The translations under genes and the position numbers were made by a program. 64,000 nucleotides of DNA, from assembly GCA_032718475.1 (NCBI GenBank), contig JAUCBJ010008354.1, positions 124,001 to 188,000 on the forward strand, in the 5' to 3' direction. Of this stretch, positions 6,011 through 61,175 are shown piece by piece (within the stretch, counting starts at the first letter, position 1; every line of letters starts with the position of its first letter). The notes beneath the pieces were generated by a model. That model ran no database searches and was not told the origin of the DNA. It saw only the letters and a list, made by a program, of their open reading frames with translations. The DNA is from Nemertoderma westbladi (lineage: Eukaryota; Animalia; Xenacoelomorpha).

Positions 6011-6234
6011 TAATGGTTAAAACAGGAGTAACATTTAGAAAATTATATTTAGTATCGAGTAAACCGTTAGCTACTGATTTAAAACCTCAAGATATACCTA
6101 GAGTAAATACTACAAAAAGAAAACCCTTTAAAACATCAACTTCAAAGAAAATAATAAAAAAATTTCAGTTGTTTTTACGGTGATGCCCTTTATAAGAGAT
6201 TTGAATATACATATTACTTGCGGTTGTCGAAAAG

Positions 6235-11396: not shown

Positions 11397-11474
11397 CCGC
11401 TCCCAGAAAATGGGATTTTCAGTCTATAAAATATAAAAATCACAGTTTCTAAAACCTAAAGATACTCTAAACAG

Positions 11475-14685: not shown

Positions 14686-15228
14686 CAGATGGTCAAAGGG
14701 TTTAACAGATTTATTTTGCGTTATACGCTACTGTTAAAGGGACATCACGCTACTATATGTATTATTTAATATACGGTATGAGAGCAATATCGCACGAAGC
14801 AATGTCAGTGTGAAGAGGCAAGTCGTTTCCAAGGTCTACCCAGAGCTTGGTTTAGCCGAGACACGAGGATCTGAACTTTGCATTCCTAATACTCTGCCTA
14901 CCAATAATACTTGAATATAGTAGTGGCTTTATTGTACTTTAATAAGTACGGACATTTCATCTTACGGTAGTTACGTATTTATAATATAATACGGACAGTA
15001 AGGAAAGAGAAAAACACTTGTTTCTCACCGTCACACTAAATATAATATAAGTAATTACGTACGCAATAAACACGAACATATTGCACTATTCTACTAAATA
15101 ATCGCTAAATAATATTCTACTAAATTAAATAAAACGATTATAATAAAATTACATAGTAATACATACATAAATATAAAAATAATAAAATAATATAAAATAA
15201 TAGAGTCACACGCCCACTCCGAACGATA

Positions 15229-18200
15229 TTAAGTTGGGGAGTCCCTAGATGTCGGTTGGATTAGGGAAGTGGTCGTGGGAAGAGTTTCTTGCCTTCCATA
15301 GTTTCCGGAGAGCTCTCTGTCTCTTTCCAGTAAACATAAACGACCCACTGGGCGGTTGAGCTGTTGAGTCTCAAAGACTATCCCTGGTTTCTTAAAGTTA
15401 CGCCGCATGACGACGAGCTCTACTGATCGCACCAAACCATCGCTCGAGATATGAGTCTCGATGATACGTCCTGTTTGCCATCGCTTACGTGGGAGATCGG
15501 GGTCCACAATAAGCACCATGTCTCCAGCGCTGACGTTTTCTTGCTGCGCAAACCACTTAGTTCGAAGTTGTAGAGTGGGCAGGTAATATTTCTCGAAATG
15601 GTCAGCGAAACGACGGGATAGCAACTGCATAAGTTGCCAGGTTCGACGGCAGTACTCGTCTCCGTCTGTGATCTCCGATCGTGGGAGCATGGCTACGGGT
15701 TTCTTCAGTAGAAAGTGCGCGGGTGTTAGCGCTTCCAGGGAATCAGGACTTGAAGAGACTGGCATAAGCGGTCTTTCGTTGAGATAGGCGGCGATTTCCT
15801 CCATTAACGTCCGCAATAGTTCGTCGGTGAGATAAGCGCGACAAGGTACAATAAAGTGGAACGCAGTCTTCACGCTCCTAATCAATCTCTCCCAACTTCC
15901 TCCCCACCAAGGGGCGTCGGCGGCATTGAAGGTCCAGCTAGACGCTGTTATCTTTAGCTGATCGTCCACCTGTCTTTTGTTCCAGTCCTTTACGTAAGCT
16001 TGAATTTCGTTGTTGGCGCCAATGAAGTTCGTTCCCTTATCCGATCTCATCGTGTTACTGGTTCCGAAGCGAGCGATCTGTCGTCGTAAACTCAACACGA
16101 AGCTGTTGGTGGATAGATCGTTTACCATATCGAGATGGATAGCTCTACAAGTCATACAAACGAAGATGACACACCATCTCTTGACTATAGTCCGGGCACG
16201 ATATACTTCAATAGGGCCAAATAAATCCACACCGGTATTAGTAAAGGGTGGTTCATAGAAGCTTACTCTTTCCCTAGGTAATTCTGCCTCTCGCTGTGTC
16301 AAAGGCCTACTGAATGCTTTCCTACAGGGTATGCAGTTCCTAAGGACTTGGTTCAGAGCCCTACGGGGTTTATAAAAATAGTAGCGAGTTCGAATTTCGC
16401 TCAGAACTCGTTCTCTTCCAGCATGATACAGTTTGCTATGAACATCTACAATCATCTTGATTTGTATGTCAAGATTTCTAATGAGTATGGGAAACTTAGT
16501 GTCAAAGGATAATGGGGCGTTGGTAAGCCTGCCTCCAACACGTATTAACCCATCTATCATGGTACTAGAGAAGCGATCCCTTAAGCGCATCTGCGGATTT
16601 CTTAACAACAGGAAATACTTATCGGGATCCTCATAGCATTGTAGGAGTCTCAGCATCTGTTTGTTGGTTTCATCATGCTCCTGGTAACTGATCTTCTCCT
16701 TTAGAAACCTGTCGGATATCTTGTATTTGGGAAGATCTTTAACAACATGGACTCGTGCAGATGTTGATGGAGCATCATCACTATTGGTCTTTGTCCCGGA
16801 GTAACGATGATGAAAACATCGTTTTAAATAGGTGACGGCTTTACAGAGCCGATTCCAGGAACTGTAATGACGTATCACTCTCTGCAGGAGAGGTGAGAGT
16901 CCTTGCGAAATATCTGGTATTCCAGATTTCCAATCCTTGTCACGGATTTCTAAGACTTCTTTATCTGTGGCGGTGGGTTTCTGATCCAAAGCATCCTCTC
17001 CGGAAGTAAATAATACAGATAGATCAACCGCAGGTTTAAACAACTTCGATTTACTCGCTCGAGTTTTGGGTTTAACTTTCTCCGCTCCCTTGGCCTGTCT
17101 GATCTCTGCTGTTGTGAGATGGGGAGGCCATTCTTCTTCTTCTCTGTAGAGAAAGTCGGGTCCACCTAACCATTCGGGAGTATTTACCAATTCCTTTGGA
17201 GTCGCTCCTCGGGAAGCGATGTCTGCTGGATTAATCGTTCCGGGGCAATGTCTCCATTGATCCATCGTCGTGCGACTAAGTATGATGGCTACTCTGTTGG
17301 TAATGAAGACGCTGAACTGACAGACTTCATTGGTTATATACTCTAACACGAGTAAAGCGTCAGTCCAATAGACAGTTTTATCTAATGGATAGTCAATCTG
17401 TTCTGTTACATTCCGGCCGATGGCTGTAGCGTATAGAGCCGCTTTTAACTCCGCTCGAGGAACTTTCAACTTGTTGTTGATTAATGCCTTAGAAGTAACC
17501 AAGGCGACTTTGATTCCATCCGGAGTTTCCACTCTTAGATAGGCTACTATACCTATTCCCATATCGCTGGCGTCTCCAAACACATGGAGTTGATAGGAAT
17601 ACATAGGGAGAACATGACCAAAATATGAACGGGAAATTATAAAATCCTCGATAGCCGGCAGAGAATCTTCCCATTTCATCCACTTCTTTAATAATTCTCC
17701 CTTAAGTGGATCGTCCCATGAGTGGTTTTCAAGCCACATTTGTTGTACCAAACTACGAGCAATCAATATAACTGGGCTAATAAATCCCAATGGATCGAAA
17801 TAAGTGCTCAGTATACTTAAGCAAATCCGTTTGGTTCGAACTGGATTATCTCGCTGTTTTAGCTGGAAAAACAGGATATCTCGCTCTGTGTCCCACTTTA
17901 AGCCGAGTGTCTTGGTTTCTGGCAGATCATCTTTGATCAAATCTAGATCTTTCGCCCCTCGATCTTCCGCAGGGATCGACTCCAGAAACTCACGGGAGTT
18001 GCTGGTGAATTTCGTTAATCGAAACCCACCTCTTTTTAAGCACTCTACCGTTCCTTTAGCGACCTCAATGGCTTCCTCAACTGATGGGAGGGACTTCAGA
18101 TTATCGTCCATATATATGTCTCGCTTGATGTTGTCGATCACTTCCTTAGAGAATGCCTCTCGGTTGTCCTCTGCAGTGGTACGCACTACCGAACAGGTGT

Positions 18201-21200
18201 TGGAAGGGCTTGAGATTATCCCAAAGGCCTGGATGGTCATCCAGTACTCCACCGGTTTCTGGTTGAGGTCTCCTTCGGGCCACCACAGAAATCGTAGACT
18301 ATCTCGATCCCTATCTAACACCTTGACTTGTAAGAACATGCCTTCTATATCGGAGGCGAAAGCAATCGAATATTGTCTCAATCTTAAAAGAATTCCCAAC
18401 AAAGATTGAAGTAAGTTGGGTCCGGGTAACAATTCAGAGTTAAGGGATTGACCCATGTAAAGAGCGGAGCCATCAAACACTACTCTCACTTCATGTGGTT
18501 TACCGGGTTTAGGAACGTAATGGTGAGTTAAGTAATACGTTCTTTCAGTCACAGGTGTTTCTTCCGGTACTCTCTCCGCGTATCCCTTACTAATAAATTT
18601 CTCCAGCTATGTTTGATACATTTCTTTAGCTGAAGAATTAGCCGTAAGGCGTCGATGGAGTTGCGCGATTCTTTTTTCCGCCAAGGGTCTGTTATTGATG
18701 AACTTCGGTTCTCTCTTGCGGAAAGGTAGACCGACTTCATACCTACCTTGATCTTTGAGGAAACGCGTAGTTGTTTCTTGGATCTGCTTGGCCCTTTCCT
18801 CTTCCACCGATAAGGCTTTATCGTAGGAATTGGGCTCTACCGCCTCTTGCGTAAAGAATCATACGGCATGTTCATCTCGAGTCTTGGCATTGCAACGCTC
18901 AATGACGTCATTTAACTCGTCGTTATAAGCTTCTCGTTCAGATGGATAAAGAAGTTGACATAAGTTCACTTGGTTTTGCCAAGCCTCGTTTTCCTTAAGG
19001 AGATCGATGGTATTCTCCTCATCAAAAAGCTGGTGAACGTCGTCGTTATCTGAGGAGTATGGAGTTCCCTCAGTTAAATCGTCTCCCTCACTAGTATCAT
19101 CTTCCCATTCACTCACCTGGCAGACGCGCTCTTGCGGTAGTCTTTCTCTGAGTGTTCTACGGGAAGGGCCAGTAAAGTACCAACCTACTCTAGTTCTTAC
19201 CGCATAGGTCTGTAGTGGCTGCGGTTGAGCAGGCCGTTTCTCTAATGTCTCCAGCGCCTCATGCGCGTTTTGGCCGATGAGTATTTGCACTCCAGGATAA
19301 TCAGTCTGGAATCGAGGTATGTTAAGATGTTGGATGCTCTCATCCTCGTCCCAATTATAAAGGTCTGCTTGAGTAGTAGCGAAGTTCTTTATAGCCACCA
19401 TTTTCACTGACCTTATGCTATGTTCTCCTAGTTCGTCCTGGGGGGTGGACAACACGCCTACATAATAATCCGCTGTTACTGTAGATTTCCAAACTTGCAT
19501 AATGCCGGACATGTTTAGCTTAGTTCGGAACTTGGGTTGTCCAGCAAATATGTCTTCGGCTAGCTCTTTGTCGATGAATGTTCCTGTACTACCGGAGTCA
19601 AGGAGGGCGTTCACTACATAACTCCGTTTAGGTCCGTGAACCCTTACCTGCACCACAGGAAACTCTCGGATCCCTACATTGGAAGATGGCTCTTTCCAAG
19701 ATGGTTGTCGATCAGGAGTAGTTAGAGTGAGGTCGCTGTCTGTATCTTTTTCATATGTGAGTGCTCGATACACTGCGGTATTTATCATGTAACAGGATTC
19801 GTTTTCGTCGGAGAACTCGTCCGTATAGAATCCTTCCATCTCAGATTGATCAGTGTCGTTCACATCACTGAATTGGACATGTAGTTCGGAATCACTTACC
19901 TGATTCGGACTATTTCGCTCGAATTCAGCGTGCAACAAGATATGATGTTTCGCACCACACTTTGCACACCTTATGTCAGAGTAACAGGTTCGCCGTTGGT
20001 GTCCTTGTCTGAGGCAATTATAACATAACCGCTTATCCCACATGACTTCTCGTCTCTCCGTTAATGATTTCTTCAGGAATTCATCACACATATTCAAACG
20101 GTGGGTCCCGTCACATAGCGCACATTTCGGTTTGATGTTACTTACCTTATTTTGGGTAACATTGTGCACTCTCGTTCTTTCTTCGGGCTTTCTCACCTGA
20201 ATTCTCTTGGGAGACGTAGGAGGAGTTTTTCTTACCTGTTCTCTCTTGTCATTGGATCGAGACTTAAATTTACTTCCCTGTTCGTTAGGTGTTTTATTGA
20301 CATAATAAGATCTTTCAGTGTCTTTCCCGCTATCCTCCCCTTGGGAAGCTTGGCTTTCGCCGTCGTCGGTATAACACACTGGTGTTACCTTTCTTCTGGA
20401 GACGGGTTTCTCACTTACCTTGTTCTCCGATGTCTTCTCTCTGGACTGCTTTATGAGCTGTAATTTCACTTCGCCATCCAAGAATGTCATGAGATCAGTC
20501 ATGGTAGGGTCTCGTTGTTGTTGTTCCATCATGTATAACACTTTCTTGTCCCAGCGTGTACCTACTCCACCCTTCGGTAAAGTAGAAGCCACTGCTCTAA
20601 TAACCATAGCACTCTGATACTCATGAGACTTACCTAGCCAATCTAATTGTCTGCAGATCTCCTGAATTTCATTGGAAAACTCTATAATCCCGTTGCTAAT
20701 AAACTTTCGGGGCGCTACCAACTTTGCATACAAATACCCAGCTATGTTATTCCTATTACCATATGTTTAGTGTATCCCAAACTTGTCTTAATCCGTCTGG
20801 ATGTCCAATAAACTTTAACGCCATTAACTTGGGAGATCCTTCCAAGCACTCTATGAGGAATCTAAGTTTCTCTCCATTAGATAGTACAGAGTTCTGTATG
20901 TTATCTTTGTAATATTCATTAAAAGGTAACCATTTCATCTCATCTCCATTGAACTTGACGATCTCTCCCACCTTTACCGCTTGCCGGGCTTCGGTTCTAG
21001 CCATTTGACGCGTAAAACTTTCTTGGGCCATCGTGTTATTTAATATCGAATTATCGGTATATAAATTTCTCGGATTATGATCAGGTCTATAGGGAATGTC
21101 ATTATCAACAGGTCTATAATTACCCTTAATAGGGTTCACTATAGGAGTTTCTACTTCGCTAGCAGTGTATATGCGTGTAGGCTCCACACCTTGCGCATGA

Positions 21201-23344
21201 GATACTTCAGGCCTAACAGGTTGACACATTGTTACCGAGGGTGGTGGTATACCCTTTTGTGTATTTACTAATTTATCGCGTTCGAGCGCGATACTTTGCT
21301 GCACTTCTTGCAACTCTAGTCTACTTTCCCTTACTGTGCCCTTGAATTGCTGAACAGTCTCCTGCATCTGCCCGAGCAGGAGATCCATCCCCCGCCGTCT
21401 CTCGTCCACCCATTCGACCGCAGAAGCGGGAGTCGCCAACGTTGTAGCGGGCGGACGAGGGACAACGGGTGACAAATCATGAATATTTCGCTCGGGGTCC
21501 AGGACCTGAACTGTCTCCTGGGCAGTTCTACTGGGCACAGGTAGCTTAGTGCTGTGCAGAGGGAATTTAGAGGTAGCTTCAGGGAGCACAGGTGTGTCTA
21601 TCACCGAAGGGGTGATTTCAAGAACAGGCCTAATTATTTCAGGCTCATCTACTATAGTAGGGAGTCTTTCTATTTTAATTATTTGGTCTGTGGGTTCTGT
21701 ACTACCTAAGTTGGTGCTATTTAGTTGCCTTCTAACAGCTGGAGGCAAATCAGGCAATTTCTGACGGTAGAATGTTCTTTTACGTCTGCTTAGACGAGAT
21801 CTATTTCCTTTGCCTTCAGTATCGGTGGTATCGCCTTCCTCAGATGATGTATATCCCTGTCTTTTGGGAGTAGATCGATTCATCATCTGCATATTACTAG
21901 CTGTTAACTGTTTATTTATGCAGTCTTGATTCTCCTGAATGTTTTCCAATTCTAATTGGGTGATTTCTTCCGCCGCTCTACGTTCTGCTTCTGCCACTGC
22001 CATTTCTGCTTTTCTTTTCATTTCGGCTGCTTTTCTTTTCGCTTCTGCCTCTGCCGCTGTCGCTGCCGCTTTTCTTTCCATTTCGGCTGCTTTTCTTTCC
22101 ATTTCGGCTGCTTTACTTTCCTCTTCGGCTGCTTTCCTTTCCGCTTCGGCAGCTGCTACTGCTGCTTTCTTTCTGTCTTCTATACGTTTTTTCTTTACTT
22201 GCTCTTCTTGGACTCGTGTGATGCGGAGTTGTTCATCAAATTTAGCCTGATTCGCAGCCCTCATTTCCACATCGATGGCATCCAACACGCGCTGAGTTCC
22301 TTCACTATTAGGGCTAAGTCCATCTAACCTTCTCCTCAACTCGTCATCACCTAAAAAACGTTGATAGTCTGACAGATAGATGTCAATGGCATCCCTCTTA
22401 TGCGGCTTCTCTGCCGTCGCTTCACTTTCCACTTGGGAAAAAGTAGCGTCTGTTGATTCTCCATGGGATGAGCGCTCCTCCAGCTGAGCTTTCCACTGAG
22501 CTGTTCCTTGAACCTGGAGACTCACCCGTTGAAACCAAGTCTTTACGGCAACTTGCAACGACGTGTCTTGTCTTCGTTTAGAAGCCTCCTCAAAGGCCGA
22601 TAATATTAGCCTGATTCGTAGAATTCTTTCTCTAACTTGATAAAGCAGTTGTCCCTGCTCTTGAGGTCCTTGTGGTTGTTGAAACAGTTGTCCTTTTACT
22701 CGCTCCATAGAGCTGAAAAATCCCTGTGCGTATCCGGCTGCGGACCTCTTCCACACAGCTGGATCTATGGTTTCCTTGGCTACTCCCATCCGGTGTATGT
22801 CTTCCCAGGCAGCTTCTGATAAATCAAACGGGAGTCCGGGTCCGGGGAAGTTCCATTGCGACTCGACAATAGACTTCAGTTCTTCCCTCGTGTATCCCGC
22901 ATAACTATCTTTAGTTGATCGCTGACTTCTCGCCCAATCGATCTGGTGTTCTTCCACTGCAATCAATAACCTAGTGAGTACGGCTGCAGGAAGGATGTGA
23001 AGGGGATCCGAATAAACCGCATCCTTCATCTTTGCTCCGCGCTCGGGTGTCAGCTCTACAGTATCCTCACTACTGGAGCGGTTGGGCCATTGAGAAATAA
23101 GTTCTTGGCTCGCGGGTTGTTGCTGTTCTGCTGCTTCTTGGTCCCGCTTGACCTGAGCTCGAGTGCCTATGATAGACCTACGATGTTGGACCAGCCTAGG
23201 TTCTGTTATTACTACTGGAGGGATGACCTTCCTCACAGTAGGAGGTGAACTGAACTTAGGTCTAGACGGTTCTACACCTCTATCTGAGTCACAGATAGTT
23301 ACATCTAATAAACTGTCTGACAGGTTCTGCTTAGTATCAGACAT
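15229..23344 (-). pseudogene. Single gag-pol ORF of copy A with one frameshift and two nonsense codons
   Basis: Gag CALC..H..C / CYNC...GH....C / CAKC...HH..LH; protease LLDSGS; RT VRVVFDGS, SDIEGMF, YMDD; RNase H FGDAS, WTDA, NPADIASRG; integrase H..H..CIPC, GVDLFGP, SDKGTNF, WERL. 5-bp deletion near 20762 relative to D; in-frame stops at 18859 and 18607. Confidence 0.95.
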
Positions 23345-24733
23345 GTTTATGGGTACAGTTGAATGCCTACTGCTATATTACAGTCTAAGCAAGTCTAGTA
23401 ATTCAGTATTAACTGCTAGCCTAGTAATTAATTACCGATACTGCTACTCAGTGTAGCGTGATATATATAATATATTAGATTACCGGTATGCTTATAGTAT
23501 ATATAAGTATTATTACAGACTAGGTTTATCACAGAATACCGGTATAATTTTAGCACAGATATATATAAATATATAATAGGCCTATCGGGAATACCGGTAT
23601 ACAGCTTACAGTTTGTAGTATATATAATTCTGGACTAGAATTAATTACAAGTACCGGTATAATTTCAGCCTAAATTTATAGAAATAAAGATAATAGGCCT
23701 ATCGTAAATACCGGTATATCAATTATTTTAAATAATTGAATTTCTGAATTTTAGGGTTACTTGGTTACTTTACTTACTTTATTACCGTTATTTGAGCAGT
23801 AATCCAACTGATATTGAGACCTAATGGTTGTATGGTAGCTATGCCTGCTACCATATGCATGCTGGTAGCCTGCTATTTATAAATCGTTAGATTTGATTTA
23901 TAATATATATATACCCGTTTTAATGGGTTTTGTCAATGTTTGAAATAAATGTTATTATTTCTGGGGAGTAATCACTACACAAAGCGGTGCGCTTTCAGTG
24001 AAGTGTTACTTATAGGACACTAAAACAAATAATTCTAATTTACCTAAGTTACTTAATACTACAAATTACGTACAATTCGGGTGAGATTACAATCTCTAAA
24101 TAAACACAAAAATTTACAAAAACACAAAATACGAATTTTCAGGGTAATTTTACAAGAAGTCTACAAACCAGCCTAACAAAGGGTTAGAAATCTGGTTATT
24201 ACAACTACTGCGGTATTTGAAAATAATACGTAGTAGTAAATACACTGCGTTGTCCAGATAGGAAAATACCACCGCCTGACGACCTATAGCCATATCGCTA
24301 TAGGTACTACGTTATGTATCACGGAGTGTTCCTACCTAGAAGTTAATAGAGCTAATCGAACGTGCCTATCAACCACTTTACAACACAAATATAATGCCTA
24401 CACTAATTACTTTCGGAAAGCACTGTACACTAAACCCTAAATTAGGTACGAGTACTTGTACAACATATAATCAGTAGTTAAATATACTTGAACAGCTAAA
24501 AGAACCACGGCATCTGCTGGAGTGACCAGTGCACAAAATCACCAGTCTTTACCTACGCCAAGCAGCCCGTGTAGTACCGGGGTTAATTTAACTATAGCGG
24601 TATGTATAACAAACACAATTATTGTAGGAACAAACTTGGGGAATGAATGTTGCGAATAATAGCATAAACTCTGAATAATAAATATTACGCTACGCGTACA
24701 AACCACTCAAACAAAATGCAGACCAAATACTGA

Positions 24734-25255
24734 CAGACTACTATCAAGCCTAAATAAACTACAGGACATGCAGACTCCGAAATGGTTAGGTAGTATGCGT
24801 TCTAACCCAGTAGTACGACTTATTCTTTAGATGGGGGTTTACCTTACAGCTTTGGCTGCCCCTACTTCCTAACCGTTCTTTATCGGACAGAGGCTCTACA
24901 CACACTGCAATCCGTTCAGACCTAATAACAGCCAGACAACTATCCAGCCTACAAATTATCTAAATAAATATTATACGCTACCTGTACAGACTACACAAAC
25001 AAAGCACAGACTAAACGATGGCAGACTACTCTCAAGCCTAAATAAACTACAGGACATGCAGACTCCGAAATGGTTAGGTAGTATGCGTTCTAACCCAGTA
25101 GTACGACTTATTCTTTAGATGGGGGTTTACCTTACAGCTTTGGCTGCCCCTACTTCCTAACCGTTCTTTATCGGACAGGTGATCTACACACACTGCAATC
25201 CGTTCAGACTTAACAGCAATCAGACAACAGCCCAGCCTACAAATTGTCTGTACAA
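24734..25255. repeat. 288-bp-period tandem duplication in the 5' leader (also in B, C, D, E)
   Basis: CAGACTACT.TCAAGCCTAAATAAACTACAGG at 24734 and 25022; the same 288 spacing at 53289/53577 and 62860/63148. Confidence 0.85.
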
Positions 25256-25566
25256 TATGATCAGGCTTACACGCCTTCTGTTCAATACTGGCCTACAAAT
25301 AAATAAAACTGACAGAAATAAGTAAGCTCCAAAAGAAACAAGGGGTGTACAGTCCCTAATCTCTTAAACAGCCTACCGGTATGCAATAATCAAAATCGAA
25401 TAATACTAATGTACTTATACTAGAAGTACCGGTTAGGACAGTTGGGCCTACAGACCTACTGAAGTACCGATTCTGGCAGTTGGACCTACGGGCCTACAGC
25501 AGTACCGTTCAGGTTTACCGGTTGACCGGTACTTTCAACTTTATTGCTTACTGCAATAAAGAAGCT

Positions 25567-25577
25567 ATATCCATTAT
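25567..25577 (-). promoter_or_regulatory. Primer-binding-site position of copy A, complementary to LTR-internal 26339-26349
   Basis: Minus-strand ATAATGGATAT pairs with minus-strand ATATCCGTTAT with one G.U pair. Confidence 0.7.
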
Positions 25578-26813
25578 TGTTCGCGCTTTCAGACCTTTGG
25601 CAGTTTAACCCGCCAAATTAGGATGTCTTCTAGATAATCAATCGCTTTTAGCCTCTGACAAGTATTTGATTCACTACACTAGTCGAAACCAATCTGTGCG
25701 CGATCATTCACCCGCTGGATATACCCGGGAGATTGGGTTCGACGGCTTAATCTTATTGCTATGTAAGCCTAATGTATTATTCGACTGACAGTATTATATA
25801 ATCTCTGACAATATTATTCACCTTCGGGGAATATTAACAGTTCCTTTAGGACGTGGCGCTCTATCTATATAAACAGAGTTATGACTTAAACTACTCACAA
25901 CGATATGGCTTAGTTATAATTCACATATATGGCGCATTCTTTAGGAAATGCTTCGTTATCAGTCTCACTCATACACAATGCTGCACAATACTGCACACTA
26001 ATCTGCCGATCTTCACTGATTTTAGTCACATATAAAAGGAACACAGACCGACTCATGTAGGGTCTATCAAATAACATTAGATTCACTTCAAACCACTTTA
26101 ACATAAGTCACAATCGTTATATGTAACCTGTCTCTCTTACCTTCTGTATATCAAGAATATTGGGTTTTCGGGGTTATTTATCGTTATTCCAAATATAATA
26201 ATTCATCAACCATATTATGAAGAACCGACAGTAAATAGCAGTATAACAATATAAAAGTATGCACAGGTATATTAGATTAGGTATGTTGCGTTGATTGAGT
26301 ATGGGCCAGTTAACCAGTGTGGTTGGTTGGTTTGTTTGATAACGGATATATGTCCTTATAATTAAGCCTACTAGTGTTAGGCTAAAACAGAAAAGCACAA
26401 AATATTCCAAAGCCGCTCTCTCCTGGCTCAGGACAGAATGTAAACACTGCCCATAAATGCATTGCGTGATTTCTAGGAAATTTCTGTACAAGAGCCATAA
26501 AAATGCTCTGATTGGCTGACTGAACTGAGAGACGCCGTAGAACAAAGAAAATCGACACGTATGAATATCAGCTGTTAACCGTCGTCATAGTAACTACTGT
26601 TCAAGAGTAGCTATCACCTTTTGCGTCACGGAATTGCCATAGAATCATCAACTATGCCTTCCACAGTACACATACGGAGGAAATAGCTCTTAGATCCTCT
26701 AAAAAACACCGATACAGCAATAATACGGTCTCTTACACCTATTAAATCAACTACAGAGTATTTTAATGTAAAAATAATAAAAATAACGGGGCAATTCAGC
26801 AAAGGCTTTTACA
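25578..26813 (-). repeat. 5' LTR of copy A
   Basis: 1236 bp, TGTAAAAG...CGCGAACA on the minus strand. Confidence 0.95.
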
Positions 26814-31878: not shown

Positions 31879-33180
31879 TTACGTTATGGAGTCCCTAGAT
31901 ATTTGTCGAATTAGGGAAGTGGTCGTAGGAAGAGTATCTTGCCTTCCATAGTTTCCGGACAGTTTTCAGTCTCTTTCCAGTAAACATAAACGACTAGCTG
32001 GGCGATTTAGTTGTTGTGTTACTTTCTCCGCTCCCTTGGCCTGTCTAATCTTCACCGGGGTAAGATGAGGAGGCCATTCTTCTTCTTCTTTACTTAAGAA
32101 GTCGGATCCACCTAACCAGCCTGGATTATCTATCAGTTCTTGAGGAGTTGCTCCTCTGGAAGCGATGTCGGCTGGATTAATCGTCCCAAGGCAATGTCTC
32201 CATTGATCTACATTGGAGTTAATATCGTCATTATCTGAGGAGTATGGTGTTCCCTCAGTTGGATCGTCCACATCACTGCTCTCCACTTCCCATTCCTTTA
32301 CTTGGTATACCTGTTGTTGAGGTAATCTCTCTTTGAGAGTTCTACGGGAAGGGCCAGTGAAGTACCAACCTACTCTAGTTCTTACCGCATAGGTTTGCAG
32401 TGGCTGCGGTTGAGCAGGCCGTTTCTCCAATGTCTCGAGCGCCTCATGCGCGTTTTGGCCAATGAGTATTTGCACTCCAGAATAATCTGTCTGGAATCGA
32501 GGTATCTTAAGATGTTGGATGCTCTCATCCTCGTCCCAATTATAAAGGTCTGCTTGGGTAGTAGCGAAGTTCTTTATAGCCACCATTTTTACCGACCTTA
32601 TCCCTTGTGCTCCTAATTTATCCTGGGGGGTGGACAACACACCTACATAGTAGTCTGCCGTTAGGGTAGATTTCCAAACCTGCATAATTCCTGACATATT
32701 CAATTTAGTCCGGAATTTGGGTTGTCCAGCAAAGATATCTTCGGCTAGTTCTTGATCGATGAATGTTCCTGTGCTGCCGGAGTCAAGGAGGGCGTTCACT
32801 ATGTAACTTTTGTTAGGACCATGAACTCTTACCTGCACTACAGGAAATTCTCTGATTCCTACGTTGGAAGTTGGAGCTTTCCAAGATGGTTGTCTGGCAA
32901 AAGTAGTTGGGGGGAACTCATTGTCGGTGTCCTTTTCATAAGTAAGTGCTCGATACACTGAAGTATTTATTAGGTAACAGGATTCGTTGGCGTCAGAGAA
33001 TTCGTCAGTATAGAATCCTTCCATCTCAGACTCTTGATCAGTGTCATTTACATCACTGAATTGGACATGTAGTTCGGGCTCACTTACCTGACTCGGGTTG
33101 TCTCGTTCGAATTCACTGCGTAACAAGATGTGATGTTTCGCACCGCACTTTGCACACTTTACTTCGGAGTAACAGGTTCG
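31879..33180 (-). pseudogene. 3' part of copy B gag-protease ORF, with RT/RH and IN deleted in frame
   Basis: LLDSGS protease, then SSDNDDINSN|VDQWRH and GAEKV|TQQLNRP junctions. Confidence 0.88.
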
Positions 33181-39600: not shown

Positions 39601-41283
39601 GTGTTATACTGACGACGGCGAAAGCCAAGCTTCTCAAGAAGAGGACAGCGGGAAAGACACAGCAAAATCTTACTATGACAATAAGACCTATAAAGGCGTA
39701 AGTAAATACAAGTCTCGAACCAGTGACAGGAGAGAACAGGTAACAACAACTCCTCCTACGTCTCCTAAGAGAATTCACAGAAGAAAGCCCGAAGAAAGAA
39801 CGAGAGTGCATAACGTTACCCAAGGTAAGGTGAGTAACATCAAACCAAAATGTGCGCTGTGCGACGGGCCCCACCGTTTGAGTGCGTGTGCTGAATTTCT
39901 AAAGAAATCCCTTGTAGACAGACGTACAGTCCTGTGGAATAAGCGGTTATGCTATAATTGCCTCAGATCAGGACACCAACGGCGAACCTGTTACTCCGAC
40001 GTAAAGTGTGCAAAGTGTGGCGCGAAACATCACATCTTGTTACACAGTGAGTTCGAACGAGACAACCCGAGTCAGGTAAGTGAGCCCGAACTACATGTCC
40101 AATTCAGTGATGTAAATGACACTGATCAAGAGTCTGAGATGGAAGGATTCTATACTGACGAATTCTCTGACGCCAACGAATCCTGTTACCTAATAAATAC
40201 CTCAGTGTATCGAGCACTTACTTATGAAAAGGACACCGACAATGAGTTCCCCCCAACTACTTTTGCCGACAACCATCTTGGAAAGCTCCAACTTCCAACG
40301 TAGGAATCAGAGAATTTCCTGTAGTGCAGGTAAGAGTTCACGGTCCTAACAAAAGTTACATAGTGAACGCCCTCCTTGACTCCGGCAGCACAGGAACATT
40401 CATCGATCAAGAACTAGCCGAAGATATCTTTGCTGGACAACCCAAATTCCGGACTAAATTGAATATGTCAGGAATTATGCAGGTTTGGAAATCTACCCTA
40501 ACGGCAGATTACTATGTAGGTGCGTTGTCCACCCCCCAGGATAAATTAGGAGCACAAGGTATAAGGTCGGTAAAAATGGTGGCTATAAAGAACTTCGCTA
40601 CTACCCAAGCAGACCTTTATAATTGGGACGAGGATGAGAGCATCCAACATCTTAAGATACCTCGATTCCAGACAGATTATCCTGGAGTGCAAATACTCAT
40701 CGGCCAAAACGCGCATGAGGCGCTCGAGACATTGGAGAAACGGCCTGCTCAACCGCAGCCACTGCAAACCTATGCGGTAAGAACTAGAGTAGGTTGGTAC
40801 TTCACTGGCCCTTCCCGTAGAACTCTCAAAGAGAGATTACCTCAATAACAGGTATACCAAGTAAAGGAATGGGAAGTGGAGAGCAGTGATGTGGACGATC
40901 CAACTGAGGGAACACCATACTCCTCAGATAATGACGATATTAACTCCAATGTAGATCAATGGAGACATTGCCTTGGGACGATTAATCCAGCCGACATCAC
41001 TTCCAGAGGAGCAACTCCTCAAGAACTGATAGATAATCCAGGCTGGTTAGGTGGATCCGACTTCTTAAGTAAAGAAGAAGAAGAATGGCCTCCTCATCTT
41101 ACCCCGGTGAAGATTAGACAGGCCAAGGGAGCGGAGAAAGTAACACAACAACTAAATCGCCCAGCTAGTCGTTTATGTTTACTGGAAAGAGACCGAAAAC
41201 TGTCCGGAAACTATGGAAGGCAAGATACTCTTCCTACGACCACTTCCCTAATTCGACAAATATCTAGGGACTCCATAACGTAA
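36658..41283 (+). pseudogene. gag-protease ORF of copy C (several stops and frameshifts; RT/RH/IN deleted)
   Basis: ORF pieces 36658-38652, 38660-39340, 39371-40303, 40324-40848, 40876-41283 are colinear with A gag-pro; same deletion junctions as B. Confidence 0.9.
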
Positions 41284-51661: not shown

Positions 51662-52851
51662 TGTAAAAGCTTTTGCTGAATTGCCCGGTTAATTTTCCTT
51701 ATTTTTCCCGTAAAATACTCTGTAGTTGGTTTAATAGGCGTAAGAGGCCGTATTATTGCTGTATCGGTGTTTTTAGAGGATCTAAGAGCTATTTCTTCCG
51801 TATGTGTACTGTGGAAGGCATAGTTGATGATTCTATGGCAATTCCGTGACGCAAAAGAGGCGAGATACTCTTGAACAGTAGTTACTATGACGACGGTTAA
51901 CAGCTGATATTCATACGTGTCGCTTTTCTTTGTTCTACGGCGTCTCTCAGTTCAGTCAACCAATCAGAGCGTTTTTATGGCTCTTGTACAGAAATTTCCT
52001 AGAAATCACTCAATGCATTATAGGCAGTGTTTACATTCTGTCCTGAGCCAGGAGAGAGCGGCTTTGGAATATTTTGTGCTTTTCTGCTTTAGCCTAACAC
52101 TAGTAGGCTTAATTATAAGGACATATATCCGTTATCTGATGTCTGATCACTGGCTAACTGGCCCATACTGTGCAACTTAACTTAACATTACTGCTTTGCT
52201 GTCGGTTATTCATTATATTTGTTGATGAATTATTATATTTGGAATAACGAGAAATAACCCCGAAACCCAATATTCTTGATATACCGAAGGTAAGAGAGAA
52301 AGGTTACATATAACGATTGTGACTTATGTTAAAGTGGTTTGAAGTGAATCTAATGTTATTTGATAGACCCTACATGAGTCGGTCCGTGTTCCTTTTATAT
52401 GTGACTAAAATCAGTGAAGATCGGCAGATTAGTGTGCAGTATTGTGCAGCATTGTGTATGAGTGAGACTGATAACGAAGCATTTCCTAAAGAATGCGCCA
52501 TATATGTGAATTATAACTAAGCCATATCGTTGTGAGTAGTTTAAGTCATAACTCTGTTTATATAGATAGAGCGCCACGTCCTAAAGGAACTGTTAATATT
52601 CCCCGAAGGTGAATAATATTGTCAGAGATTATATAATACTGTCAGTCGAATAATACATTAGGCTTACATAGCAATACGATTAAGCCGTCGAAGTCAATCT
52701 CCCGGGTATATCCAACGGGTGAATGATCGCGCACAGATTGGTTTCAACTAGTGTAGTGAATCAAATACTTGTTAGAGGCTAAAGCGATTTATTATCTAGA
52801 AGACATCCTAATTTGGCGGGTTAAACTGCCAAAGGTCTGAAAGCGCGAACA
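51662..52851 (+). repeat. 5' LTR of copy D (1190 bp, A-type)
   Basis: TGTAAAAG...CGCGAACA; followed by ATAACGGATAT (52852-52862), the exact complement of 52125-52135. Confidence 0.93.
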
Positions 52852-54983
52852 ATAACGGATATTTAGTCTGTATTGCAGTGTAGGCACTAAATGCAGTTTA
52901 ATATTGTTCTGGTAAAGAACAATAACGGATATAGCTTCTGTATTGCAGTAGGCAATAAAGCTGAAGTACCGGCAACCGGTACCCAGTAGGCCTGCCTACC
53001 TAACCACCCGGACCGGTACCTACAGCAGTACAGGTACAGCAGTATTATTCGATTTTGATAATTATATACCGGTAGGCCTTAATAATTAATCAGGGACTGC
53101 AGCCCTGGTTTTTTATTGAGATTTTTACTTATTTCTGTCAAGTTTTATTTGTTTGTAGGCCAGTATTGAACAGAAGGCGTGTAAGCCTGATCATATTGTA
53201 TAGATAATTTGTAGGCTAGATAGTTGTCTGATTGTTGTTAAGTCTGAATGGATTGCAGTGTGTGTAGATCACCTGTCCGATAAAGAACGGTTAGGAAGTA
53301 GGGGCAGCCAAAGCTGTAAGGTAAACCCCCATCTAAAGAATAAGTCGTACTACTGGGTTAGAACGCATACTACCTAATCATTTCGGAGTCTGCATGTCCT
53401 GTAGTTTATTTAGGCTTGAGAGTAGTCTGCCATCGTTTAGTCTGTACTTTGTTTGTGTAGTCTGTACAGGTAGCGTATAATATTTATTTAGATAATTTGT
53501 AGGCTGGATAGTTGTCTGGCTGTTATTAGGTCTGAACGGATTGCAGTGTGTGCAAAGCATCTGTCCGATAAAGAACGGTTAGGAAGAAGGGGCAGCCATC
53601 GCTGTAAGGTAAACCCCCATCTAAAGAATAAGTCGTACTACTGGGTTAGAACGCATACTACTTAATCATTTCGGAGTCTGCATATACCGTAGTTTGTTTA
53701 GGCTTGATAGTAGTCTGTCAGTATTTGGTCTGCATTTTGTTTGAGTAGTTTGTACGCGTAGCGTAATATTTATTATTCAGAGTTTATGCGATTATTCGCA
53801 ACATTCATATTCCCCAAGTTTGTTCCTACAGTAATTGTGTTTGTTATACATACCGCTATAGTTAAATTAACCCCGGTACTACACGGGCTGCTTGGCGTAG
53901 GTAAAGACTGGTGATTTTGTGCACCGGTCACTCCAGCAGATGCCGTGGTTCTTTTAGCTGTTCAAGTATATTTAACTACTGATTATATGTTGTACCAGTA
54001 CTTGTACCTAATTTAGGGTTTAGTGTACAGTGCTTTCCGAGGTAATTAGTGTGTAGGCAGTATATTTGTGTTGTAAAGTGGTTAATAGGCACGCTGGATC
54101 TGGTAGTCCGCGGTAATTAACTTCCAGGTAGGAACACTCCGTGATACATAACGTAGTACCTATTGTTTGTTAGGCTGGTTTGTAGACTTCTTGTAAAATT
54201 ACCCTGAAAATTCGTATTTTGAGTTTTTTGTAAATTTTTGTGTTTATTTAGAGATTGTAATCTCACCCGAATTGTACGTAATTTGTAGTATTAAGTAACT
54301 TAGGTAAATTAGCATTATTTGTTTTAGTGTCCTATAAGTAACACTTCACTGAAAGCGCACCGCTTTGTGTAGTGATTACTCCCCAGAAATAATAACATTT
54401 ATTTCAAACATTGACAAAACCCATTAAAACGGGTATATATATATTATAAATCAACTCAAACGATTTATAAATAGTAGGCCTGCCATACAACAATTAGGTC
54501 TCAATATCAGTTGGACTACTGCTCAAATAGCGGTAATAAAGTAAGTAAAGTAACCAAGTAACCCTAAAATTCAGAAATTCAATTATTTAAAATAATTGAT
54601 ATACCGGTATTTACGATAGGCCTATTATCTTTATTTCTATAAGTTTCGGCTGAAATTATACCGGTACTGGTAATTAATTCTAGTCCAGAATTATATATAC
54701 TATAAACTGTAAGCTGTATACCGGTATTCCCAATAGGCCTATTATATATTTATATATATTTGTGCTAAAATTATACCGGTATTCTGTGATAAACCTAGTC
54801 TGTAATAATACTTATATAGTTATATATACTATAAAAGCATACCGGTATTCTAATATATTATATATATTACGCTACACTGAGTAGTAGTATCGGTAATTAA
54901 TTACTAGGCTAGCAGTTAATACTGAATTACTAGACTTGCTTAGACTGTAATCTAGCAGTAGGCATTCAACTGTACACATAAAC

Positions 54984-57900
54984 ATGTCTGATACTAAGCA
55001 GAACCTGTCAGACAGTTTATTAGATGTAACTATCTGTGACTCAGATAGAGGTGTAGAACCGTCTAGACCTAAGTTCAGTTCACCTCCTACTGTGAGGAAG
55101 GTCATCCCTCCTGTAGTAATAACTGAACCTAGGCTGGTCCAACATCGTAGGTCTATCATAGGCACTCGAGCTCAGGTCAAGCGGGACCAAGAAGCAGCAG
55201 AACAGCAACAACCCGCGAGCCAAGAACTTATTTCTCAACGACCCAACAGCTCCAGTAGTGAGGATACTGTAGAGCTGACACCCGAGCGCGGAGCAAAGAT
55301 GACGGATGCGGTTTATTCGGATCCCCTTCTCATCCTTCCTGCAGCCGTACTCACTAGGTTATTGATCGCTGTGGAAGAACACTAGATCGATTGGGCGAGA
55401 AGTCAACGATCAACTAAAGATAGTTATGCGGGATACACGAGGGAAGAACTGAAGTCTATTGTCGAGTCGCAATGGAACTTCCCCGGACCCGGACTCCCGT
55501 TTGATTTATCAGAAGCTGCCTGGGAAGACATACACCGGATGGGAGTAGCCAAGGAAACCATCGATCCTGCTGTGTGGAAGAGGTCCGCAGCCGGATACGC
55601 ACAGGGATTCTTCAGCTCTATGGAGCGAGTAGAAAAACAACTGTTACAACAACCTCAAGGACCTCAAGAGCAGGGACAACTGCTTTATCAAGTTAGAGAA
55701 AGAATTCTGCGAATCAGGCTAATATTATCAGCCTTTGAAGAGGCTTCTAAAAGAAGACAAGACACGTCGTTGCAAGTTGCCGTAAAGACTTGGTTTCAAC
55801 GGGTGAGTCGCCAGGTTCAAGGAACAGCTCAGTGGAAAGCTCAGCTGGAGGAGCACTCAACCCATGGAGAATCAACAGACGCTACTTTTTCCCAAGTGGA
55901 AAGTGAAGCGACGGCAGAGAAGCCGCATAAGAGGGATGCCATTGACATCTATCTGTCAGACTATCAACGTTTTTTAGGTGATGACGAGTTGAGGAGAAGG
56001 TTAGAAGGGCTTAGCCCTAATAGTGAAGGAACCAAGCTTGTGCTGGACGCAATCGATGTGGAAATGAGGGCTGCGAACCAGGCTAAATTTGATGAACAAC
56101 TCCGCATCACACGAGTCCAAGAAGAGCAAGTAAAGAAAAAACGTATAGAAGACAGAAAGATAGCAGCAGTGGCAGAGGCAGAAAGAAAAGCGACCTTGGC
56201 AGAAGCAGCGGCAGAGGCAAAAGCTGCAGCAGCAGAAGCAGCGGCAGAGGCAAAAGCGGCAGCGGCAGAGGCAAAAGCGGCAGCGGTGGCGGAAGCAGAA
56301 CGGAGAGCGGCTGAAGAGATCACCCAATTAGAATTGGAAAATATTCAGGAGAATCAAGACTGCATAAATAAACAGTTAACAGCTAGTAATATGCAGATGA
56401 TGAATCGATCTACTCCCAAAAGACAGGGATATACATCATCTGAGGAAGGCGATACCACCGATACTGAAGGCAAAGGAAATAGATCTCGTCTAAGCAGACG
56501 TAGAAGAACATCCCACCGTCATAAATTGCCTGATTTGCCTCCAGCTGTTAGAAGGCAACTAAATAACACCAACTTAGGTAGTACAGAACCCATAGACCAG
56601 GTGGTTAAAATAGAAAGACTCCCTACTATAGTAGATGAGCCTGAAATAATTAGGCCTGTTCTTGAAATCACCCCTTCGGTGATAGACACACCTGTGCTCC
56701 CTGAAGTTACCTCTAAATTCCCTCTGCACAGTACTAAGCTATCTGTGCCCAGTAGAACAGCCCATGAGACAGTTCAGGTCCTGGACCCCGAGCGAAATAT
56801 TCATGATTTGTCGCCCGTTGTCCCTCGTCCGCCCGCTACAACGTTGGCGACTCCCGCTTCGGCGGTCGAATGGGTGGACGAGAGACGGCGGGGGATGGAT
56901 CTCCTGCTCGGGCAGATGCAGGAGACTGTTCAGCAATTCAAGGGCACAGTAAGGGAAAGTAGGCTAGAGTTGCAAGAAGTGCAGCAAAGTATCGCGCTAG
57001 AACGCGATAAATTAGTAAATACACAAAGGGGTATACCACCACCCTCGGTAACAATGTGTCAACCTGTTAGGTCTGAAGTATCTCATGCGCAAGGTGTGGA
57101 GCCTACACGCATATATACTGCTAGCGAAGTAGAAACTCCTATAGTGAACCCTATTAAGGGTAATTATAGACCTGTTGATAATGACATTCCCTATAGACCT
57201 GATCATAATCCGAGACATTTATATACCGATAACTCGATATTAAATAACACGATGGCCCAAGAAAGTTTTACGCGTCAAATGGCTAGAACCGAAGCCCGGC
57301 AAGCGGTGAAGGTGGGAGAGATCGTCAAGTTCAATGGAGATGAGATGAAATGGTTATCTTTTAATGAATATTACAAAGATAACATACAGAACTCTGTACT
57401 ATCTAATGGAGAGAAACTTAGATTCCTCATCGAGTGCTTGGAAGGATCTCCCAAGTTAATGGCGTTAAAGTTTATTGGACATCCAGACGGATTAAGACAA
57501 GTTTGGGATACACTAAACATCAGGTATGGTAATAGGAATAACATAGCTGGGTATTTGTATGCAAAGTTGGTAGCGCCCCGAAAGTTTATTAGCAGCGGGA
57601 TTATAGAGTTTTCCGATGAAATTCAGGAGATCTGCAGACAATTAGATTGGCTAGGTAAGTCTCATGAGTATCAGAGTGCTATGGTTATTAGAGCAGTGGC
57701 CTCTACTTTACCGAAGGGTGGAGTAGGTACACGCTGGGACAAGAAAGTGTTATACATGATGGAACAACAACAACGAGACCCTACCATGACTGATCTCATG
57801 ACATTCTTGGATGGCGAAGTGAAATTACAGCTCATAAAGCAGTCCAGAGAGAAGACATCGGAAAACAAGGTAAGTGAGAAACCCGTCTCCAGAAGAAAGG

Positions 57901-58583
57901 TAACACCAGTGTGTTATACCGACGACGGCGAAAGCCAAGCTTCCCAAGGGGAGGATAGCGGGAAAGACACTGAAAGATCTTATTATGTCAATAAAACACC
58001 TAACGAACAGGGAAGTAAATTTAAGTCTCGATCCAATGACAGGAGAGAACAGGTAAGAAAAACTCCTCCTACGTCTCCCAAGAGAATTCAGGTGAGAAAG
58101 CCCGAGGAAAGAACGAATGTGCACCACACAGCACAGGTTAAAGTAAGTAACATCAAACCCAAATGTGTGCTGTGCGACGGGCCCCACCGCTTGAATATGT
58201 GCGATGAATTCTTAAAGAAATCATTAAAAGAGAGACGGGAAGTCATGTGGGATAAGCGGTTGTGTTATAATTGCCTCAGACAAGGACACCAACGGCGAAC
58301 CTGTTACTCTGACATAAGGTGTGCAAAGTGTGGTGCGAAACATCATATCTTGTTGCACACTGAATTCGAACGAAACAGCTCGAGTCAGGTAAGTGAGTCC
58401 GAACTACATGTCCAATTCAGTGATGTGAACGACACTGACCAAAGTTCTGAGATGGAAGGATTCTATACGGACGAATTCTCCGACCAAAACGAATCCTGTT
58501 ACCTAATAAACACCACCGCAGTGTATCGAGCACTCGTGCATGAGAAAGACACAGACAGCGACCTTACCTTAACTACTTCTGAT
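54984..58583 (+). pseudogene. gag of copy D (5' exon); one TAG at 55383-55385
   Basis: ORFs 54984-55385 and 55539-58589 are in one frame and very similar to A gag. Confidence 0.9.
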
Positions 58584-59853
58584 GCCTAAGGAGGTGAGGT
58601 CTCTATAGGGGTGTCAGAAACAGGCGGCAGCAGACTCGTGAGGGTCTGGGGGCACGTTAAATCGTAGTTATAGTGCAAGGGAGTAACTGAAGGCCCTCGT
58701 GTCTTGCGAACCATGAATCAACATGGTGCCGTGGTACCGTCTAGTTGGCCTGTTGCCGTACTGCCAGTCCTGTACACAGTAGGGGTGGTGGCTTAGTGTG
58801 ATCTGTGGTTTATGTGGTTTATGTGGTAGGTCTATGTTTGGTATGTATGAGTTGACCAGACTCTGTACTGTCTCCGATCGGTTGCCAAAACGTGTTTTTT
58901 CCCAGGGTAGCACTATTGGAATGGAGGTGTTGCATCGGAATGGACAGGTTCTGATGATTCTGTTGGTACTACTATTGGAATGGAGGTGGCACCCGGAATA
59001 TCGGCTGCAAGGAGGGGTTGGTGTTGTAGTGTGGTCCGAGTGAATGATACTCTGGAATCTGTGGTTTGTGTGTGTACGTGGTATACGTGAGTGTATGTAT
59101 GGCCACTGCGAGTGAGTGTGGGAAACCTTGCCGGTTGGTTTAGTCGCCGCCGGTTATTAGTAGGACCATATTTTACTGCGCCCCAGCATACTTTGTGCAC
59201 ACAAAGTTATTTTACCCTGTCGGTAAAATAAAGTACTCTCGACTTTTTATTAGTCGATACAATTTTGTCCCCTCTGATTTTGTCACCGATTTTGTCTTCC
59301 CCGATTATGTCCTCTGTGTATGCGTGGTATGCGTCAGATTTTGTGTTTAACGTAGTGTACTCGATTTCGTGAGCATCTATTGAGTACACGTGTACAGTGA
59401 CTGGTAAGTGGTTACTTGTTCCTAGCTTTCGAGCTAGTCAGTATTGTTTGCGGAACCGCCTTCCCCTCAATACTGCCGGCGAGGCGGGTGAAAACGTGTC
59501 AATATTCCATGCTGGGTAGCGCAAGCCCACATGGGACAAGACCGTCGGTTTGGCTCAAGGGCGACCTTGATGCTCGATCGCTATCGACTGGTCCACCCGC
59601 CGGTTGACTCTCTGAGTTGGCTCAATGTACAGTCAGGCCACAGCAAGTTGACAGTAGCCGACCATCTGGCTACACCGACGAGTTGTGCCGGTGTGATCGG
59701 GGGATTGAAAAGTGAACCCGGGAAGCATCGGGCTACCCTCCGGCCCGGTCTGATAAAAACATCAGTCGGACTGGCCCCAAGGGTGGTGGGACAGCGTCCG
59801 CCTCATGGGTGCGCCTCGGAGTCATCGGAGAGGAGCCCAGAAGGACGCAAGCG
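58584..59853 (+). ncRNA. Group I self-splicing intron (IE-like core) inserted between gag and protease
   Basis: P1: exon TTCTGAT 58577-58583 pairs with GTCAGAA 58613-58619, U.G at the junction. P3 GGCGGGTG 59483-90 / CACCCGCC 59594-601. P4 ACG(T)GTC 59494-500 / GACCGT 59540-45. P5 TTCCATG / CATGGGA. P6 CGGT / ATCG. P7 T(C)GACTG 59584-90 / CAGTCA 59630-35. P8 59602-22. Terminal G 59853. Removal restores the sequence colinear with intron-less copies. Confidence 0.88.
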
Positions 59854-61175
59854 CAACAACCATCTTGGATGCGCCAACTTCCAATATAGGAATCCGAGAA
59901 TTTCCTGTAGTCCAGTTACGGGTCCACGGACCTCAGAAGAGCTATATAGTGAACGCCCTCCTGGACTCCGGTAGCACAGGAACATTCATCGATAAAGAAC
60001 TAGCCGAAGTCATCTTTGCTGGACAACCCAAGTTCCGAACCAAGCTAAACATGTCAGGGATCATGCAGGTTTGGAATTCTACTGTAGCTGCCGACTATTA
60101 TATAGGTGAGTTGTCCACTCCACAGGATAAACTAGGAGAATACAGTATAAGGTCAGTCAAAATGGTGGCAATAAAGAACTTCGCTACCACCCAAGTGGAA
60201 CCTTATAATTGGGACGAAGATGATCATGTCCAACAACTTAACATCCCTAGATTCGACACCGATTATCCTGGAGTACAAATATTAATCGGTCAAAACGCGC
60301 ATGAGGCGCTGGAGACATTAGAGAAACGACCTACTCAACCGCAACCACTTCAGACCTATGCGGTAAGAACTAGAGTAGGTTGGTACCTTACTGGACCTTC
60401 CCGTAGAACGCTCAGGGAAAGACTGCTTCAAGATCGCGTCTGCCAGGTGAGTGAATGGGAAGACGATACTAGTGAGGGAGACGACCCAACTGAGGGAACA
60501 CCACACTCCTCAGATAATGACAATCTTAACTCCAATGTAGATCAATGGAGATATTGCCCCAAGACGATGAATATAGCTGACATCGCTTCCAGAGGAGCAA
60601 CTCCTCAAGAACTGACAGATACTCCAGACCAGCTAGGTGAACCCGACTTCCTGAGTAAGGAGGATGAATGGCCTCCCCATCTTACTCCGACTGAGATTAG
60701 ACCAGCCAAGGGAGCGGAGAAAGTCAAACCTAAAACCCGGACGGGTGGATCGGAGTTATTTGAACCCGGGATAGATCTGTCGGTATTACATATTGCCAGG
60801 GACGACGCCGTGGATCTGGACCTCCCCACCGCGAGTGGATCCTTCATGAAGATCAGAGAGAGCGATTGGAGCTCTGGAACATCAGACGTCTCGCAGGGAC
60901 TCTCATCTATCCTGCAGGGAGCGACAGACCACTATAGCTCCTGGAATTGGCTTTGTAAGGCCGTCGTGTACTTAGAGCGATGTTTCTATCGTCACTATTC
61001 CAGGACGAAGAGGAAACCTGGAATTGTATTCGGGATGCAGCGACTCAATCACCCAGTCGGTCGTTTGTGTTTACCGGAAGGGAATGGAGGACTCTCCGGA
61101 AACTGTGGAAGGCAAGATTCTCTTCCCACGACCACCTCCCTAATCCTTCAAACATCCAGGGACTCCATAACGTAA
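59854..61175 (+). pseudogene. Protease and truncated pol remnant of copy D (3' exon)
   Basis: LLDSGS; NSN|VDQWRY junction (RT/RH deleted); YSRTK|RKPGIVF junction (integrase deleted); 1-nt deletion near 59869 relative to A/B. Confidence 0.88.

Follow-up and report, generated by a model that had tools for sequence, protein, structure and literature searches.

The window (the whole 64,000-nt stretch of DNA analyzed here) contains sister copies of a BEL/Pao LTR retrotransposon, designated A to D, and the gag-pro gene of copy D is interrupted by a 1270-nt insert (58584–59853, plus strand). Upstream of it, the 5′ LTR (51662–52851, plus strand) has TG...CA ends and is 91.8% identical to the LTRs of copy A, and the gag region forming the 5′ exon (54951–58583, plus strand) matches DUF1759 (E = 4e-11) and has 92 to 94% amino acid identity to copy A. 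The 3′ exon comprises the protease region and pol remnants (59854–61175, plus strand). Copy D is dead and non-autonomous: gag contains an in-frame stop (55383–55385), the reading frame breaks about 15 nt past the insert, and the element has lost RT, the integrase core, and most of RNase H, retaining only residues 446 to 606 and 1069 to 1125 of the copy A Pol. An inverted LTR cuts the element at about 61412. Copies B, C, and D are all pol-deletion derivatives.

Copy A (10161–26813, minus strand), characterized by sequence comparison and Pfam, lacks the insert and provides the reference for the empty site (19711/19710). Its two LTRs (1236 nt each) are identical, so its insertion is young, and its coding region is split over three frames. 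The host element was classified as BEL/Pao from DUF1759 in the gag of copy D, from Pao peptidase A17, Integrase_H2C2, and DUF5641 in the Pol of copy A, and from the LTRs. All 22 named organisms with Pol relatives (33 to 43% identity; best 120 of 783 relatives) are animals, the gag clusters closest to it come mostly from arthropods or cnidarians, and a protein search with the protease region found one protein. BEL/Pao elements are described as metazoan in PMC3118150. Copy A itself interrupts a PHD-endonuclease LINE (8626–10220), and a Maverick/Polinton fragment with a RING-like ORF, a packaging ATPase, an integrase, and a minor-capsid-like ORF occupies positions 3613 to 8448. Together, these observations make an animal host likely.

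The boundaries of the insert are unambiguous. One kilobase of flank on each side matches copies A (94% identity to copy D upstream and 87% downstream), B, and C (83 to 84%), and the insert itself matches none of them; its sole match when compared with the rest of the window is a 24-nt internal repeat of its own. The equivalent empty sites lie at 19711/19710 on the minus strand in A, at about 40265 to 40269 in B, and at about 32893 to 32898 in C. The exon ends in T58583 and the insert in G59853, and comparison with the insert-less copies revealed no target duplication. A DNA contig without the insert, from sequencing run X4, joins the identical two points, with four differences over 172 nt on the left and none over 101 nt on the right. 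The preliminary description had reported an insert absent from the three sister copies, a 5′ exon ending in U, a terminal G, and no target duplication, all of which are borne out by the sister copies, with the X4 contig agreeing on the ends. A spliceosomal intron was rejected because the insert borders show no GT/GC-AG ends and specifically no AG end, and a nested transposon was rejected because there is no target duplication. Identity between copies A and D falls from 94% before the insert (54166–58583) to 87% after it (59856–60521), which suggests recombination near the intron in copy D.

Parts of the stretch are present in six of nine listed sequencing runs from four studies, none of them on record as RNA. 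In three DNA runs of organism A, 30 of 30 bins are covered by contigs, the insert included, and one organism B run reaches 24 of 30; no single piece spans the whole stretch, and contig depth does not equal copy number. Dozens of diverged variant contigs cover the insert region among the matches listed, and at several positions the window copy departs from almost every other genomic copy. The X4 contig thus shows that forms with and without the intron occur in almost the same flanking sequence. Such a pair could arise by precise gain through reverse splicing or by precise loss via spliced RNA, or alternatively by conversion from an empty copy. One contig of run X1 matches up to exactly 59853 and then continues with 30 unaligned letters, which may mark a second insertion site. 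Run X5 (organism B, RNA by guess only) contains two insert-less contigs and at least three insert pieces, in which splicing and insert-less DNA are not separable.

The insert is almost certainly a group I intron, as indicated by sister-copy comparison, DNA contigs, and a covariance model. Its P1 (58577–58619) pairs the exon end and intron start with an internal guide (58609–58619), as found in a guide/exon pairing test. The 11-bp helix 58577–58587/58609–58619 places the pair U58583.G58613 at the 5′ splice site, exactly where the preliminary description had put an 11-bp helix with a U.G wobble. A small hairpin in the P1 loop (58590–58604) is common to the retroelement-type relatives described below. 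The following P2/P2.1-type 5′ peripheral domain (58620–58763) is colinear with those of 10 relatives (11 rows with the window). A peripheral hairpin (58764–58777 with 59390–59404) then carries in its loop a repeat-rich, non-coding expansion of about 610 nt, and the introns of loci L124, L149, L153, and L185 are expanded at the same place.

The catalytic core (59483–59635) has its P4–P6 scaffold and P8 in canonical group I order, and all helices from P3 to P8, together with the guanosine site, occur at the positions first proposed for them: P3 at 59483–59490/59594–59601 (8/8 pairs), P4–P6 at 59494–59580, P7 with a bulged base at 59584–59590/59630–59635, and P8 at 59602–59622, followed by J8/7. 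The guanosine site in P7 is the pair G59586-C59634. P4 contains a bulged T59497, which had been suspected of being decay. This need not be so: two unrelated relatives (L109 and L189) have the same bulge, as do most genomic copies, and T59497 is missing from two, four, and one contigs in X1, X3, and X4, respectively. In the window copy, the last P3 pair is broken, with a J7/3 string that occurs in 2 of 105 cores. The window copy also lacks a short peripheral hairpin that is frequent among close relatives but absent from some natural ones.

The 3′ domain (59636–59853) contains P9.0, P9, P9.1, and P9.2 and terminates in G59853; in a folding test, this part of the insert did better than all of 100 shuffles (z = −3.7). 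P9.0, formed by G59637-C59638 with G59851-C59852, is kept in all 19 rows of the comparative alignment, the window included, and P9 (59639–59644/59682–59687), P9.1, and P9.2 covary across these rows. The P9-type stems of the preliminary description thus exist as domains, but its GGCCA/TGGCC pairing is wrong and was rejected as P9, since relatives show P9.0 and pair P9 at 59639–59644/59682–59687. P10, already noted as not obvious, is not evident by eye in the window intron or its relatives, with at most two to three pairs in each, and is given as optional for group I introns in PMC3679873. The ends predicted by P1 and the terminal motif are the same as those obtained from the empty-site comparison. 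The intron has a simple P5 without P5abc, together with P2.1- and P9.1/P9.2-type domains; the IE-like label of the preliminary description is tentative. A Pfam search of the insert found no homing endonuclease and no TnpA or TnpB, the mark of an IStron; its 161-codon open frame on the minus strand has no Pfam match, and local comparison with eight related endonuclease-like proteins gave a best E value of 0.31.

Rfam yielded no match on the insert at either its gathering or E-value thresholds (the RF00028 gathering score is 50 bits). This result is uninformative because Rfam misses the relatives as well: across 17 viral loci, only two family cores were matched, at 33.6 and 22.3 bits, both below threshold. 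The Rfam seed held no ID or IE introns at the time of GISSD, according to PMC2238919, and the need for subtype-specific models for group I introns is supported by PMC6125680. Relatives were recovered by pattern. A P7/J8-7 scan of viral contigs returned 106 stretches, and a stricter motif reduced these to 24 distinct cores, which share the core, the 5′ domain, and P9.1 with the window intron. A corresponding scan of metagenomes returned at least 118 stretches, 80 of them with long flanks, and the best of these align with the window intron from its first bases to its 3′ end. Among 185,579 prokaryote genomes, three matches were found, all in MAG contigs, one of which reads by eye as a giant-virus capsid.

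A covariance model (R1) was built from 47 cores, chosen among the 72 short, non-redundant members of a set of 105, with the window left out. In the alignment of these cores, pairing holds in 99.1% of 1645 cells, and two-sided changes occur at 18 of 35 pairs; none of 500 shuffles reached any of these measures, and slid controls paired at 27 to 45%. P3, P5, and P8 covary freely. The letters of P7 were largely fixed by the search pattern, and within it the pair before the bulge covaries (UA in 32 cores and AU in 15). The model scores the window core at 111.9 bits (E = 1.2e-28), and other full-length members outside the training set score 103 to 127. The covariance-model support anticipated for the intron was thus lacking in Rfam but was obtained from this independent model of relatives, and covariation among homologues was likewise found. 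A chance fold was rejected on the strength of this score, the next best site in the window reaching 12.5 bits.

Phylogenetic placement of the window core depends on the method. In a FastTree phylogeny it groups with all 10 retroelement-labeled tips, three viral tips, and many unassigned tips (0.947). In an IQ-TREE analysis of 110 block alignments, which left out 17 loci, including the retroelement loci L111, L113, L135, and L185, viral and retroelement tips are interleaved with weak support, and the window pairs with two other cores that have the bulged T. The two trees disagree, and neither fixes the direction of transfer.

To assign host genes, Pfam was run on 150 of 161 flanking ORFs, then on 28 exon-side ORFs and 84 short ORFs, with the last round assigning only L129. 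Retroelement domains were found at 12 of the 118 metagenome loci among the matches listed and are of Ty3/gypsy, copia, and non-LTR types: copia RT (L111), RT with LTR-type RNase H (L113, L147, L176, and L185), integrase (L125, L128, L133, L138, and L140), RT with non-LTR-type RNase H (L116), and zf-RVT (L135). L128 is a near-duplicate of L138, as L125 is of L133. No BEL/Pao context was found among 224 loci. The other assigned loci of the 118 listed comprise 11 with giant-virus capsid, RNA polymerase, or VLTF3 domains, 2 with helicase, 3 with mitochondrial nad5, 1 with LAGLIDADG only, and 1 each with histone H3, a kinase, and an inositol phosphatase; most of the 118 have no assigned host gene. 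The viral family cores are located in giant-virus capsid, PolB, primase-helicase, and RPB2 genes. DUF7487 ORFs, candidate intron-encoded endonucleases, adjoin or sit inside giant-virus capsid-gene introns in either orientation (L010, L011, L032, and L042).

The introns at these unrelated sites are matched to their exons. Twelve introns with a long-loop P1, including that of the window, have 11 distinct exon ends, and each guide pairs with its own exon around the invariant U.G at 11 of 11 sites, compared with 7 of 110 swapped partners (the cognate sites having been selected for pairing). Seven of the 11 exon ends finish in GAT. Among the 11 metagenome members of this set, five are assigned to retroelements and none to viruses. 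Among loci in which both intron ends were identifiable, the reading frame is preserved across the intron in L124, in L128/L138 (within the integrase core), in L176, and in L185 (just before the RT YxDD motif); it fails in L156, and the sequences of L149 and L153 are not long enough to judge. In L122, integrase sequence precedes the intron and, as judged by eye, RT-connection sequence follows it; this locus is probably a chimeric assembly across similar intron copies.

Several groups of relatives have distinctive distributions. Introns that are 78 to 95% alike adjoin many different 3′ exons, several of them Ty3/gypsy-like (L110, L118, L122, L125, L133, L155, L158, L165, L172, L177, L180, and L182), probably through repeated colonization of one retroelement group. 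Dispersed copies that are 83 to 96% alike, with decayed cores, lie beside unrelated genes such as those for the kinase and the inositol phosphatase (L121, L123, L129, L169, L174, L186, and L217), as if multiplied within one eukaryotic genome. In L127 (minus strand), the 3′ end of a family intron, at about 332, directly precedes a histone H3 ORF (Pfam E = 2e-34) at its second-residue region, which places a group I intron in a histone gene; the 5′ end is off the contig. Mitochondrial nad5 introns with the family core (L132, L139, L170, and L183) include some with LAGLIDADG ORFs.

Nuclear group I introns are described as confined to the rDNA of microbial eukaryotes, namely protists and fungi (PMC3679873, PMC8395846, and PMC9223047), and in a 2025 survey of 42,459 introns those of animals are placed in placozoans, corals, and sponges and are mostly mitochondrial IB4 (PMC11835236). 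The window intron breaks both of these stated limits, rRNA genes of microbial eukaryotes in one case and mitochondria of three early-branching animal groups in the other. With nuclear rDNA introns of types IC1 and IE (Tetrahymena Tth.L1925, Didymium Dir.S956-1 GIR2, and the myxomycete introns) it shares the U.G in P1, the guanosine site in P7, the terminal G, and a nuclear location. Myxomycete rDNA introns also have large non-coding direct-repeat inserts in peripheral loops, as described in PMC3679873 and PMC8395846. Unlike these rDNA introns, it interrupts protein-coding sequence, that of an LTR retrotransposon whose host is likely an animal. The mitochondrial introns of placozoans, corals, and sponges are likewise found in animals but differ in being mostly IB4 and mitochondrial (PMC11835236), whereas the host here is a nuclear mobile element.

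Group I introns of eukaryotic DNA viruses, such as chloroviruses and Polinton-like viruses, also interrupt protein-coding genes, and the window core shares homology with introns that giant viruses carry in their capsid, PolB, RPB, and primase genes; the host of the window intron, in contrast, is an RNA-replicating retroelement. As compared by published description, the chlorovirus intron is called IB (PMC7019647) and the Polinton-like virus introns are RF00028 matches from protist nuclear genomes (PMC12220804), whereas the window family falls below the RF00028 threshold. The bacterial IStrons, IA2 group I introns fused to IS605/IS607 elements, resemble it as group I ribozymes tied to a transposable element at unrelated protein-coding sites (PMC13565253). 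However, an IStron contains its transposon and moves as DNA by TnpA, whereas the window intron is itself contained in a retrotransposon, has no coding content, and probably moves via RNA. Hammerhead ribozymes of Penelope-like elements and retrozymes are also ribozymes in eukaryotic retroelements (PMC4209133), but they are small self-cleavers and parts of the element itself, whereas the window intron is a splicing intron that interrupts gag-pro. A literature search of titles and abstract openings, covering few subscription papers, found no report of group I introns in retrotransposons among the matches listed. The insert is a real group I intron residing in a retrotransposon and a member of an apparently undescribed lineage associated with retroelements and viruses. 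Because Rfam overlooks this family, unannotated members may exist in many genomes.

In the reading preferred here (probability about 0.8), the window intron belongs to an endonuclease-free lineage predicted to self-splice and likely spreading by reverse splicing into retroelement RNA, followed by RT copying. In the fold described above, the U.G pair of P1 sets the 5′ splice site, P7 contains the guanosine site, and the 3′ end is marked by P9.0 and the terminal G. By established group I chemistry, guanosine would attack after U58583 and the exons would be joined. The host reading frame would survive splicing, so the element would pay little. Excised intron RNA could then pair its guide with a 5- to 6-nt match, often ending in GAT, in retroelement RNA and reverse splice into it, the insertion becoming fixed once that RNA is reverse transcribed and integrated. 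Unspliced element RNA would yield intron-bearing copies and spliced RNA intron-less ones. This RNA route of reverse splicing, reverse transcription, and integration is considered probable. There are reports of reverse splicing in vitro, in yeast, and in E. coli, and the complete route with reverse transcription and integration is described as lacking evidence in PMC3679873. Residing in an element that provides RT and integrase, and found with matching guides at numerous sites, such an intron would be a natural record of the reverse-splicing route and make an old open question testable.

Spread with the retroelement's own copying enzyme is likely because relatives sit in other retroelements and in giant viruses. 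The preliminary description had proposed a ribozyme that parasitizes its retroelement, and the occurrence of relatives in several retroelement classes at unrelated sites agrees with this. Its premise that the element's own enzymes would be used does not hold for copy D, which lacks RT and integrase and would require those of another element as helper. Activity of this exact intron copy is predicted at only slightly better than even odds. It is also reasonably likely, if less so than the RNA route itself, that a widespread endonuclease-free group I lineage inhabits eukaryotic retrotransposons (BEL/Pao, Ty3/gypsy, copia, and non-LTR), including those of animal nuclear genomes. Such a lineage would retarget by guide change, complete the RNA route with host-element enzymes, exchange members with giant viruses, and sometimes land in cellular genes such as histone H3.

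Alternatively, a real group I intron could have arrived in a single DNA-level transfer, perhaps from a giant virus or Polinton integrated in the genome, and now be a passive, possibly dead passenger that is copied solely along with its element. The close core relatives found in giant-virus genes for capsid, polymerase, and primase, in some cases next to endonuclease-like ORFs, would fit such an origin, as would the Maverick/Polinton piece in the same window and the state of copy D, which is dead and has private changes. A single gain is nevertheless unlikely: the insertion falls precisely at the ends defined by the ribozyme, its guide matches this exon, introns of this type occupy unrelated positions in several classes of retroelement, each with a matched guide of its own, and the 5′ hairpin and 3′ domain are most like those of retroelement-type relatives. 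Endonuclease-driven homing, with the 610-nt expansion as a decayed homing endonuclease gene, is less probable still. Viral and mitochondrial members do carry HNH, LAGLIDADG, or DUF7487 ORFs, and the insert has its 161-codon minus-strand frame, but that frame resembles neither a Pfam family nor the eight endonuclease-like proteins (best E value, 0.31), and the expansion is rich in short repeats. Moreover, homing copies an intron to the same site and leaves the 11 unrelated sites unexplained.

A chance fold, spliceosomal intron, nested transposon, or misassembly would be consistent with the lack of an Rfam match and of any single contig spanning the stretch. Against these, the core matches an independent model at an E value of 1e-28, the insert has no AG end and no target duplication, three DNA studies cover 30 of 30 bins, and the viral members of the family are also under the Rfam threshold; such explanations are already largely refuted and retain a negligible probability.

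The P7/J8-7 motif occurs past the main ORF of small mitovirus-like contigs (L003, L060, and L087; also L090, L094, and L103), with no Rfam or R1 match. In RNA-virus-like contigs, matches to GIR1, the lariat-capping ribozyme, were found at L041 (1878–2084), L016 (1273–1445), L025 (933–1109), L072 (1868–2081), and L004 (1730–1920, minus strand), with weaker ones at L064 and L067. Five of 10 loci have E values of 8e-10 to 4e-5 but score below the gathering threshold of 100. Most of these GIR1-like matches follow a long polymerase-like ORF and precede the adjacent one, and they may cap the downstream viral mRNA.
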